A stretch of 64,000 bases of DNA from Ruditapes philippinarum (lineage: Eukaryota): the NCBI RefSeq assembly GCF_026571515.1, contig NW_026861885.1:1-64000 (forward strand), written 5' to 3'. The first letter of the stretch is position 1, and each line of letters begins with the position of its first letter. Made by a program: the position numbers and the translations under genes. This document shows positions 1-3,510 of this stretch, one piece after another. A model generated the notes under the pieces. The model had not been told where the DNA came from and ran no database searches. It saw only the letters and a program-made list of their open reading frames with translations.

Positions 1-620
1 GGGTTTCCTGAAGAGGAGAACAAGTACCCAAGTCAGCCCCAGCATCGACCGGAATCCTGAATGAATCCAGGTCATGGGAAATGAAGGCTGACCTAAAGGA
101 ACAACTACAGTTCCCCAGGAAATCGCCCAGACTACCCTCCGGCCAGACATTGTTTTATATGGTCCAGGAATCCTAAAACGAGTGGTGCTGGTTGAGCTGA
201 CAGTCCCATGGGAGGAACGCATTGAAAGATCCCACGAGCTCAAGAGGTCCAAGTAACGAAGACTTGGCCCAATCCTGCAAGTCCAACGGCTGGAAACACT
301 CAGGTCTTCCCGATTGAGGTCGGATGTCGTGGCTTTCCCATCACAATCAGTGGTGGAGGATGCTCGGAGCAATTGGGCATCAAAGGAGCGGCACGAAAGC
401 GCACAGTCCAATGCTCTGGGGAGAACAGCCGAAAGAGCGTCCAGTTGGCTATGGATGCTCCGTAGCAAACATGAATGGCAGCCAAGGTAGACGGGGTAGG
501 GCCTGATCAACCCTACTTGTTCCACCATCCCGAGGGTGTCCCGAGTGTAAATGGAGCGAAACACCTGCAGACGGATGGTAACTCGGCTGATGACGTCTAC
601 CTCCAGCAGGACATCTGTTA
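1..620 (+). mobile_element. 3' end of an RLE-type non-LTR retrotransposon (HERO/R2-superfamily-like), frameshifted, cut by the window start
   Basis: Joining frames gives WEMKADLKEQLQFPQEIAQTTLRPDIVL..KRVVLVELTVPWEERIERSHELKRSK(Y)EDLAQSCKSNGW..VFPIEVGCRGF..AERASSWLWMLRSKHEWQPR*, stop TAG at 488-490. This is a PD..E..K restriction-like endonuclease domain with the RPD, ELTVPWE and EVGCRG motifs. Several single-base insertions break the frame. A structured 3' UTR follows. Confidence 0.85.
524..605 (+). ncRNA. Candidate hammerhead-like ribozyme with non-canonical (pseudoknotted) strand order in the retrotransposon 3' UTR
   Basis: GUC at 538-540, GAAA at 558-561 and CUGAUGA at 587-593. Stem I is CCGAGU 541-546 / ACUCGG 581-586. 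Stem III is GGGUGU 534-539 / ACACCU 561-566. Stem II is imperfect (UGGAG 552-556 / CUCCA 601-605). An extra helix pairs ACCAUCC 524-530 with GGAUGGU 573-579. Confidence 0.5.
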
Positions 621-681
621 TTCAACTCTAAAATGATGAATATTTATATTAGACAGACATCAATCCATCCATTCCTATTCC

Positions 682-759
682 TTTAATTAATTAATTAATT
701 AATTAATTAATTATTTCATTCATTCATTCATTCATTCATTCATTTCATTCATTCATTCA
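682..759. repeat. Compound (TTAA)n-(TTCA)n microsatellite
   Basis: Read directly from the sequence. Confidence 0.95.
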
Positions 760-1489
760 AGGACTTCCGTTGCACAACATCGCAACGGCGTAAATCTTAT
801 ATAAAACTGTATGTACTAAGTTAACAATAAAATTTATTCAACAAATAAACAAGCAATAGCGGATTTCCTACATTCTTCTGTCTGAATGTATTGGGCATGG
901 TTTCCCGTGCTCATCATGTGAACCCCAACTATGTTAACCAGTCACCAAGCAAAATTGTCGACCTTGAAATCCGTTAATCCGTTAACTGTCCAAAAAGCTA
1001 TACAACAACAATACGCCCAATTGGTCTTAAACGTTCCTGAAATTGAGGCTGAAAATACGAACGAAATGGGACTGAAAGTGAATTTCATTATAGCCTAATT
1101 GACTGTTCGGAAATATTTAAATGAGTAACTTTAGCACTGAATATAGCGCCCAAAGGGTTTTAAAACAAATCAATACAACTAAATGCACTGTTTAAACTTT
1201 CGGCCATAAACATAAGTGCCTGGATCTAGGAATTAGCGACCATGCCATACGTCTATGGCAAAACATCAAAGACCTAAGTATAATAAGTCATGTTCGGAGT
1301 TCTACCAAATGGCAACGTCGCACCCAGTTATACCTTTGTGACACGACGCCTGCCACCGCAAAAAGAGAGACAATGTAACTCTTTTGGAAGCAGCGACCAT
1401 CCGAACATTAAACACAAATTAAAAAGAAAAACGGATTGCCTGATGAGAACGGGAACCAGCATTATCACACTTGTACTACTCAAAGCAAT

Positions 1490-3510
1490 TACAACTACCG
1501 TACACAAATGCTTATAATGCAGACGATATCTGTGTCAGAAACAAACAATTGCCAAAGGAAGGATAAATGCACCCAATCAGCTGCAAATAGAGCGTAAGTA
1601 ACTTAACTAATGTCAGGGTGTTTCAGGTAAAAACCACCGTTTTCAATTACTCTCTTAGTCGCATAACTATTTACCCTTTTTTTGTGCTAATTTCATTGCA
1701 GCATAATAACCTGAATGGCGTCATGCATTATGACGTGGAAATATCTAGGACCAAATGATTTTACATTTAAAAGTAACAAAAATGATCTTGATTACGCTAT
1801 CAATTTGTGCACGAAATTCTTATAGATTATTTTGACCTAAATCATTACCCCCACAGTGTAATAAAATTATGTCGGGTATATCTCCAACCCTCTTTAATGT
1901 CTTAAATTAACTGAAAACATCCGGTATAGACATTTTGCTGTAGCCTTGCCACCAAATAATAATACACTTCAAATCTAGGCTTGCTCCACCAGGCCTTTGC
2001 CTTGCTACCGTAAATGCTTGCTTTAGTGTAGACGATCCAATACCTTTTCTGTGCTTTGAATACATTGGCTTGAATTAATTCAAAGCTAAGGCACCTGCGT
2101 GTTAGCATAAAAAATGGTTCACCTTATATATGTAGAATTTGATACTACTTCGATATAACCTTCACTTTCATCTACCAGTAAATCAGATATTAAAATTACA
2201 TTTGCAGCTGATATTTTGCTCGGTCACATCACTCATTCTAAGGAAAGCAAAATATGCAAGACAATAACCTGCTGCGAATCCATGACTTTAATACAAATTT
2301 GAACAAACCGCAGGCAAAACTGACAAAATATGCTGCAATACATGTTGAGGTATTGTTAGTCTTGACTCTCTTACTCTGGCAGACCTCTTCAAACCCTCTA
2401 AAAGCTTGTCAATAATGTAATGCATTGAAACGTAACAAACATTGCTAATCTTTAATCGAAACCCAATTGTATTACATATAAATGGGCAGTTGAAAATGCA
2501 ATTTCTTTTAATGATAACCAGGAAATAAACATGACTTTTTGCTCTATGGTAGGTGGCCAAACTGACTGCATGCTTTAAATGTTCCTAAAACGTTCAAAAC
2601 AATTAAGCCTTGTGTTGTAAACTCTGTGTTATCTGCAAACGAAGCGTTTAACTATCTTTCAGCTTCAGATTGAACCTCAATGAAAAAGAAACGATCTGGT
2701 ATATTCGCTGTTTTCTGGTTTGCCTCTGCAGTAAACTTTCAGAAACAGTCCAACTGCATTCGAGAAGTTGAGTAAGCGATTGAGATTGCACTGCTTTAAA
2801 CAAAATACCTAACTCCTTTGCTAATAATACAAACTGACGAACTGATTGCATAAAATGCTTTGATTTTGATGCTTGCTTGATTATGACTACAGCTAAATTC
2901 TCATTATCTAATAAAACTTTCTTATGTTGAAACTGTCTCCCCCATAAACATAAGGCGAGCATAACAGGGACTATTTTTAAAAAGGTGATGTCCTTCATAA
3001 TCATGTCACACAATGTTTTAGGCCACACAAGAAACGACTATTCTACTCCGTAAAAACAACCATAACCCATTTTTGAGTACCCTGCACTGTCAGTAAATAA
3101 CTTCAAATTACTACTATCTAACCATACGTCATCTGGGATATAACTGACACCGCGGAATGAATACAAAAATGTGAGCCACACCGTTAAATAAAGTCTTACC
3201 GCTTCTGAAATTCTGAAATGGGAAGCATATGATAAGGCTTTTTAACATAGGACATGACATCATAGCATCTTCGCAAGAATTTCCTTCTCGAACGTAATGC
3301 TTGACTGCAAAAAGACATTTTACATACTAATGACGACACACTGACGAAACTGAACTGAGGAGTGCACTGCCTATAGTTAAAATAAAAACACTCTTTTGTA
3401 CTTTTTTGCATACTGACCCCAAACATACTAGCAGATGCACCAATGTATAATAACCAAAGCTCATAATCTATCTTGGCAAAAGATATGCCAGTTGGATCTG
3501 CGGCCAGGCG
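1490..3510 (-). mobile_element. Degenerate, internally deleted Ngaro/DIRS-order tyrosine-recombinase retrotransposon
   Basis: Minus-strand order: ORF1 end (RLAADPTGISFAKIDYELWLLY..CFYFNYRQC); RT C-terminus (FCSQALRSRRKFLRRCYD..KKPYH); RNase H (LFTDSAG..WP..DITFLKIVPVMLALCLWG..DN); YR (IDKLLEGLKR..R..LPAVCSNLY..FAFLRMSD); SGNH hydrolase (WIV..ARQRPGG..IWWQGY, PDIILLHCGGNDLG near 1835-1880, ADWVHLS near 1560-1585). Many stops and frameshifts. Confidence 0.8.

Follow-up and report, generated by a model that had tools for sequence, protein, structure and literature searches.

A predicted split-core hammerhead ribozyme in the tails of HERO-like retrotransposons, with genomic copies that suggest an RNA circle

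The first lines of this DNA raise the question of why the conserved strands of a hammerhead ribozyme core should stand, in reversed order, directly behind the gene of a retrotransposon, and what they could do there. The window that we analysed is a stretch of 64,000 nucleotides from Ruditapes philippinarum (assembly GCF_026571515.1, contig NW_026861885.1, positions 1 to 64,000 of the forward strand). A sequence-only reading had placed a hairpin just 3' of the stop codon of a restriction-like endonuclease (RLE) reading frame, followed by a GUC cleavage triplet, GAAA and CUGAUGA, and had proposed a hammerhead of possibly unrecognised topology, needing a pseudoknot or pairing between two RNAs, that processes the 3' end of HERO-like RNA.

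We found these parts in the letters where they had been claimed: the hairpin (494-501/511-518) follows the stop codon TAG at 488-490, the GUC triplet lies at 538-540, GAAA at 558-561 and CUGAUGA at 587-593, and stems I (541-546/581-586) and III (534-539/561-566) close on them. An additional helix that the reading had noted (524-530/573-579) is also real and is called P4 here. The features are as follows, with hammerhead numbering, kink-turn position names and four-way-junction stacking according to standard conventions; percentages and counts refer to an alignment of 46 sequences (A2) described below.

1-490, + strand: 3'-terminal part of the only ORF (RT-RLE, here its restriction-like endonuclease domain) in a family-A element of the HERO-like non-LTR kind; the 5' part is lost at the contig start
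485-493, + strand: 5' strand of P1 (partner 594-602), an arm of the four-way junction; 80.6% paired, two-sided changes in 9/9 pairs, found independently by RNAalifold
488-490, + strand: stop codon TAG, inside P1
494-518, + strand: hairpin P2 (494-501/511-518), which forms another arm of that junction, its loop length differing by family; covaries in the majority register
519-523, + strand: 5' strand of stem II (G10.1 = 519; partner 553-557); 94.7% paired, two-sided changes in up to 25/46 per pair
524-530, + strand: 5' strand of P4 (partner 573-579); 84.5% paired
531-533, + strand: non-bulged strand of the kink-turn (3n C531, 2n G532, 1n A533)
534-540, + strand: block S, stem III strand 534-539 (U16.1 = 539) and N17 = C540; stem III 93.0% paired, U16.1-A15.1 in 45/45
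between 540 and 541, + strand: predicted cleavage site; N17 is U, C or A in 44/46
541-546, + strand: stem I strand 3' of the predicted cut (partner 581-586); 97.6% paired, two-sided changes in 5/5 pairs
553-566, + strand: block G, stem II strand 553-557 (C11.1 = 557), G12-A13-A14 at 558-560 and stem III strand 561-566
567-572, + strand: 3-nt bulge of the kink-turn (567-569), then G570, A571 and C572 (1b, 2b, 3b)
573-586, + strand: 3' strand of P4 (573-579) and stem I strand (581-586)
587-593, + strand: core CUGAUGA (C3-A9), N7 being U, C, G or A among relatives; the 3' strand of P1, not stem II, follows directly
594-602, + strand: 3' strand of P1 (partner 485-493)
605-619, + strand: terminal hairpin GCAG...CUGU, in most cases with AU after it, 10-15 nt short of the element end; from folding of about 20 relatives
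620-629, + strand: 3' end of the element, at the position of the head-to-tail junction in tandem copies; host DNA lies beyond

The window copy carries every core letter (C3-U4-G5-A6-N7-G8-A9, G12-A13-A14, A15.1-U16.1 and N17 = H), and its blocks run NUH, GAAA, CUGANGA, that is, in the order S-G-C, as opposed to the CGS, GSC or SCG of types I, II and III. A descriptor for this order matched the + strand of the 64-kb window once, at this motif, and matched first-order Markov controls nowhere (0 in 9.56 Mb in its strict form; 0 in 3.78 Mb with one mismatch allowed). Rfam returned nothing relevant in window positions 1-3000 at E<=10, no hammerhead included, and no relevant match at gathering scores in 10 loci, so that Rfam misses the motif, as the reading had expected of standard descriptors. 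The literature was less kind to the claim of an unrecognised topology, since the S-G-C order has already been described and validated in vitro as type SGC by Eckert, Friedrich, Weinberg and Weinberg in 2023 (PMC10085705). Folding of the single sequence was uninformative (z = -0.81). The minimum-free-energy fold of this copy, at -42.2 kcal/mol, competes with the nested part of our model at -37.9, which counts against the model. We also considered an HDV-like fold by eye and dropped it, since P1 would have no pairing strand between P3 and J4/2.

The motif forms the end of a dispersed repeat, with 40 scored matches in the clam's own genome (G000) at identities of about 94-99% and 76-79%, and a protein search of the same genome gave 154 matches. 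One unit of the element is 3.7-3.95 kb long and has one long ORF, which is intact over 1234 aa in one locus (L121) and which gave an RVT_1 match and a below-threshold zf-RVT match in a family-B locus (L033); by eye we recognised an N-terminal zinc finger, a CCHC knuckle and a conserved RLE block (PD-(D/E)xK), so that the layout (zinc finger, RT, CCHC knuckle, RLE) is that of single-ORF RLE non-LTR elements. The window copy differs from its sister copies by 10 gap openings, which are frameshifts or assembly errors. Tails examined in the clam genome fell into seven families, with roughly 41-63% protein identity to family A, and all seven of these RLE-retrotransposon families carry the motif 3' of the ORF. 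Named relatives, from proteins alone, come from bivalves, lancelets and teleost fish, in agreement with the range reported for the HERO clade (PMC9004415, PMC10294476). The host range of its relatives and its insertions, which are dispersed and without a specific target site, point indirectly to a HERO-like element; its protein matches R2 structures weakly (best E 1.5e-27). A search of viral contigs for relatives found none. About 50 nt 3' of the insertion, at window 680-760, there is a (TTAA)n and (TTCA)n microsatellite that is absent from the flanks of other copies.

The sequence-only reading had suggested aligning related 3' UTRs. A metagenome scan with an RLE alignment gave 345 confirmed stretches, and among the best 80 (39-94% identity) we found the motif in 71: a parser detected it in 55 and a covariance model in 16 of the other 25, seven of these 16 being cut by contig ends. 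Eight of the last nine lacked the ORF end or enough flank, and one locus (L213) had enough flank and no motif. The 63 parsed motifs (55 from metagenomes and 8 from the clam genome), less 17 dropped as more than 88% alike, were aligned with MAFFT without structure to give the 46 sequences of A2, which overstates conservation somewhat because the parse demanded near-core anchors and a pairing score. In A2, U4, G5, A6, G8, A9, A13, A14 and A15.1 are invariant, C3 and G12 are at least 90% conserved, N17 is not G in 44/46 and N7 is free. The covariation score was 0.545, against 0.180 for shuffled alignments (0/500 reached it) and at most 0.173 when the model was slid along the alignment, and stems I and III covary. 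RNAalifold recovered P1, P2, P4 and stem III, with two-sided changes in 27/28 pairs; the low pairing of P2 in A2 (30-52%) arises because the window row lies one column off the majority register. In a G-test with APC over all column pairs, the top 24 were predicted pairs (two of them in the majority register), and nine pairs exceeded the largest value of 20 tree-based null simulations. Six helices thus covary in A2 and RNAalifold together, and we regard the fold as almost certainly real.

The core and its unusual order in an RLE element tail therefore held up, whereas the proposed stem II (557-595 with 552-556/601-605) did not, being 48.2% paired among the 46 sequences against 47.0% in shuffled ones (155 of 500 shuffles reached it). 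Stem II is instead formed by 519-523 with 553-557, its first strand lying upstream of the predicted cleavage site, and its G10.1-C11.1 pair (519-557) is G-C in 39/46 and G-U in 4/46. Against 17 other family-A copies the window copy has two private changes: C520T, by which one pair of this stem II becomes a wobble and the stem is weakened, and T603C, which makes a G-U into a G-C in the helix first proposed. The base after A9 is C, U or A in 43/46 and belongs to P1. The core is thus interrupted at the A9/G10.1 step, with a four-way junction bridging the break: the chain passes from A9 through P1 and P2 into stem II with no unpaired bases at the crossings in 35/46 sequences. The A9-G12 pair would be the fourth arm, with stem II stacked on it and P1 on P2.

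Stem III is joined to P4, the helix bridging stems I and II, by a predicted kink-turn. P4 serves as the NC helix of this kink-turn and corresponds, in type SGC, to the stem I-II interaction helix. The kink-turn pattern (a 3-nt bulge with G-A and A-G pairs) occurs by sequence in 31/46, against a shuffled mean of 1.2 and a maximum of 7 in 2000 trials; the remaining 15 have other bulges between stem III and P4. In 25 of the 31, either 3n is G or 3b is C, in none both (Fisher p 2.5e-4), and one has a Watson-Crick pair there, a pattern that matches the published rule for kink-turn folding in metal ions alone (PMC4382518). The distance from G12 to C3 is 26-29 nt in 44/46. The bend would be what a single molecule needs in order to dock its hairpin loop (540-560) on its own base, the kink-turn folding the P4-stem III hairpin back so that the knot could form within one molecule. 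The kink-turn is absent from L084 (family E), L179, L203 and L218; L084 and L179 have a bulge on the opposite strand and a G12-C3 span of 22 nt, which suggests an alternative bend. P1, the kink-turn and the tandem architecture described below had all escaped the sequence-only reading.

Unselected tails carry the same core, with decayed cores in L194, L195, L197, L200 and L220. G12 is replaced by A in three of the four full-length contigs of one family (L144, L176 and L189, vs L205) and in L211, while L195 and L197 have a changed U16.1; these contigs may be decayed copies. The change of G12 to A, which falls on the C11.1-G12 CpG, recurs across several families, L082, L095 and L111 holding one such copy each, and may reflect either CpG decay of dead copies or spread of inactive variants. 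In one family-A-like copy (L142:2561-2677) the cleavage block has been deleted between two short direct repeats. By every feature that sequence can test the motif is a hammerhead, predicted to work like one of type SGC, a block order known to cleave in vitro (PMC10085705), and we hold it to be very probably catalytic.

If the ribozyme simply processed the RNA's 3' end, as had been proposed, insertions should end at the cut. They do not: the simple form of the claim fails because insertions end about 89 nt past the predicted cut and most long copies cross it, leaving that account of function incomplete. In 72 distinct insertions the 3' ends of each family cluster, a few exceptions apart, in a span of about 7 nt that lies 72-123 nt past G12 and just past the conserved hairpin (605-619), which is a candidate signal for the start of reverse transcription. 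The insertions have no poly(A) tail and no regular target-site duplications (a 9-bp duplication in 1 of 17 copies with both ends).

To look at the other end of the insertions we collected 34 distinct copies holding the start of the 5' leader, from six families (at least 88% identity; contigs deduplicated by hand; five are lower bounds). Thirty-two of them run head-to-tail into a previous unit through a fixed junction, which we located in 31: 29 have the reference length without added bases, and two have one extra homopolymer base. Two copies, L037 and L041 of family A, start exactly at the unit boundary and are one unit long. Seven others have their 5' end between this boundary and the predicted cut, and the remaining 25 begin upstream of the cut, at distances of about 35 to more than 1400 nt from it. 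The overhangs are long and variable in all six families examined, two whole ribozymes are present in 23/34 copies, and one locus holds about 2.1 units. Two of seven family-B 5' ends (L139 and L121) lie within about 4 nt of the predicted cut. Of the metagenome loci with enough flank, 13/45 run on into an ORF start; these assemblies are collapsed, and so this count shows that junctions exist, not their frequency. A 3887-nt contig from a run guessed to be RNA spans the junction and is about one unit long (3889), as collapsed DNA repeats would also look. On L038:4200-7200, two runs labelled RNA-seq (X22 and X23) gave unstranded reads, over half of them chimeric at GATC, resembling proximity-ligation DNA, and a third run (X24) gave 0 reads. 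A canonical hammerhead assembled across tandem units was rejected, as the cyclic order S-G-C stays reversed.

The sequence after the junction has features of its own. The 5' leader (L031:5714-6044, - strand, and 12 relatives; alignment A3) has a mean column identity of 62% over 13 divergent elements, with repeated UGAC-flanked hairpins and a C5/G5 hairpin, two-sided changes in 24/49 predicted pairs and no Rfam match in the loci scanned; it is a candidate signal for cap-independent translation or protein loading. In family-A tandem copies (window 551-629, L031 and L038) an AUG at 551, which lies 10 nt past the predicted cut, begins a frame that meets no stop in the ribozyme or at the junction and continues into the ORF; family B has no such AUG. 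The last codon and stop of the ORF lie inside P1 (window 485-493) in families A and B, so that a terminating ribosome would open the four-way junction, and translation and cleavage may be linked in this way.

The layout of the genomic copies suggests that the elements are copied from an RNA circle. In the cycle that we propose, a read-through transcript of a two-ribozyme copy would be cut at both 540/541 sites, and the double-cut monomer would be ligated, by the ribozyme or a host ligase, into a unit-length circle. The element's protein would bind the tail and prime target-primed reverse transcription inside the circle near 629, and the reverse transcriptase would roll past its own start to make one unit plus a variable piece of the next, rebuilding the two-ribozyme arrangement. 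We think it reasonably likely that the S-G-C hammerhead, opened at A9/G10.1, turns HERO-like RNA into such a circle, and quite probable that a circle is the template of reverse transcription. The chances are about even that the whole of this holds for a HERO-like clade of R2-like LINEs in molluscs, lancelets and fish: a protein-coding circular RNA of 3.7-4 kb, a split-core, kink-turn hammerhead, cap-free translation from the leader, and rolling target-primed reverse transcription from an internal start.

The alternatives differ first in the template. No cDNA can be made across the break in a linear RNA that has been cut, and since 25 of the 34 copies do cross the predicted site, such a template is disfavoured; a circle primed near 629 and copied by a rolling reverse transcriptase would explain together why the 3' end is fixed, why the junction is exact, why 5' ends are spread out and why two copies are one unit long. 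The ribozyme could nevertheless cut while the template is an uncut linear transcript of more than one unit, primed internally, with cleavage serving to release 5' ends from host transcripts, translation or copy-number control. Penelope-like elements give this reading its precedent: they initiate reverse transcription internally and leave partial tandem copies, an uncut linear template has been proposed for them, and in one with a similar tandem layout hammerhead mutations left insertion in vitro unimpaired, and none of the reads had its end at the cut (PMC11167929). The existence of G12A copies points the same way, as do the two family-B 5' ends near the cut, which could come from linear cut RNA, although short 5' ends of other families cluster elsewhere in the motif, so that these two are not specific. 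A linear template should, however, only shorten the upstream partial copy in each generation, yet six families keep long overhangs and one locus has about 2.1 units, and we consider this explanation unlikely. We give still less credence, and indeed very little, to the idea that the tandems arose independently of the ribozyme when reverse transcriptase jumped between linear RNAs starting and ending at the junction. The R2 reverse transcriptase does jump between templates, and L037 and L041 start exactly at the junction, but 32/34 copies pass it, and jumps should leave ragged junctions where these are precise to the letter without untemplated additions.

Other alternatives concern the fold itself. 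LINE proteins bind their RNA where the motif sits. A non-catalytic, hammerhead-shaped recognition fold for the element's protein would also account for a strand after A9 that is held in P1 and for the scarcity of matches to the published SGC pattern, which demands G or UG after CUGAnGA and then stem II (PMC10085705): the pattern fits 6/63 motifs loosely, and 1/63 with CUGAUGA. Such a fold has only a slim chance of being the whole explanation, given that stem II does form with its upstream strand, keeps G10.1-C11.1 and is tied to A9 without unpaired bases in most sequences, that conservation falls on the letters of the catalytic core, N7 being free and N17 not G, and that a separate conserved hairpin adjoins the start of reverse transcription. 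It is marginally less improbable that the core needs to dimerise for activity, with the hairpin loop of each molecule docking on the junction of another, which could coexist with the circle. RNAalifold found only the nested part (P1, P2, P4 and stem III), two copies would lie on one tandem transcript, and dimeric cleavage is known for minimal type I motifs of the Penelope-associated kind (PMC7761336); against this, published SGC ribozymes cut during transcription (PMC10085705), and an ion-folding kink-turn and a nearly fixed P4/stem III span would be needed by a fold-back monomer, not by a coaxial dimer.

The interest of the motif rests mainly on its split core and on the possibility that a clade of LINEs copies a circular RNA. 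The usual view of RLE LINEs is that their RNA is linear and that priming takes place at its 3' end; if an RT-RLE protein primed inside a self-made circle and rolled, this would represent a different LINE cycle, relevant to R2-type gene-insertion tools, and would make the role of hammerheads in tandem retroelements testable in a compact single-ORF system. If the motif cleaves as predicted, a four-way junction can take the place of the A9-G10.1 link, which had been assumed to be unbreakable, a further class of permutations is being missed by current search patterns, and non-circularly permuted hammerheads have their first animal-genome setting in the literature searched.

Among known systems, the proposed cycle is that of retrozymes applied to an autonomous LINE, and we infer its steps beyond the fold and the copy structure. 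Retrozymes are non-autonomous, non-coding circular-RNA retroelements of 150-700 nt with type I or III motifs, and the cycle proposed for them likewise has cleavage at tandem hammerheads, circularisation by ligation and cDNA that exceeds a unit (PMC7761336); the unit here is instead 3.7-3.95 kb and encodes its own RT-RLE. Penelope-like elements with minimal type I hammerheads (PMC4209133) resemble the present ones in that genomic copies are partial tandems, units meet at a hammerhead and the 3' end of insertions is defined inside continuous RNA (PMC11167929), but have a telomerase-like RT with a GIY-YIG nuclease and a minimal, often dimeric type I motif in place of an R2-like RT-RLE and a large split motif of SGC order. 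An unrelated many-copy repeat in the clam genome (G000, e.g. C10:36518-36554 and C958:8984-9020) matches GAAAC...CUGAUGA and may be a tandem minimal type I hammerhead of the Penelope or retrozyme kind. With R2 and other LINEs that have 5' HDV-like ribozymes, the element shares a single ORF with RLE and a self-cleaving RNA (here predicted) for release from read-through transcripts; R2, however, is specific to rDNA, and its linear RNA has the HDV-like fold at the 5' end (PMC7761336, PMC6765202), whereas the hammerhead fold here lies 3' of the ORF, the insertions are found dispersed, and those that are long comprise more than one unit.

The closest relative is type SGC, which comprises HRIMA-1 and a variant, 583 non-circularly permuted sequences from metatranscriptomes only; none of the motifs of that study comes from the genome of a known organism save one GCS candidate (PMC10085705). 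Both share the S-G-C order, a full core, a short linker from stem I to stem II, a double-pseudoknotted core and, judging from the text and primer sequences of that paper, a helix joining the far ends of stems I and II, here P4. In type SGC, stem II directly follows CUGAnGA and the chain ends lie outside, and Eckert et al. assumed that this block, CUGAnGA with its stem II strand, tolerates no interruption (PMC10085705). Here stem II does not follow within 1-2 nt, the chain is opened between A9 and G10.1, and the motif falls outside published type SGC because block C is split; with P4 as interaction helix, it is an SGC motif whose ring is closed through the kink-turn and reopened between A9 and G10.1. 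The kink-turn would be a natural solution to the link between stem III and the interaction helix, which Eckert et al. called unclear (PMC10085705). A term search of the supplement of that paper gave neither "k-turn" nor "kink", and "retrotransposon" in a reference only. In the titles and abstract openings that we searched, a scope that leaves out most subscription journals and Repbase Reports, none dealt with this form or with a ribozyme of HERO elements, and we found no tested precedent for an opened A9/G10.1 backbone. Known already, then, is the S-G-C order; new in the literature searched are a core split by a four-way junction (P1/P2), a kink-turn link to stem III, a setting in the DNA of animal RLE retrotransposons, and insertions of more than unit length.
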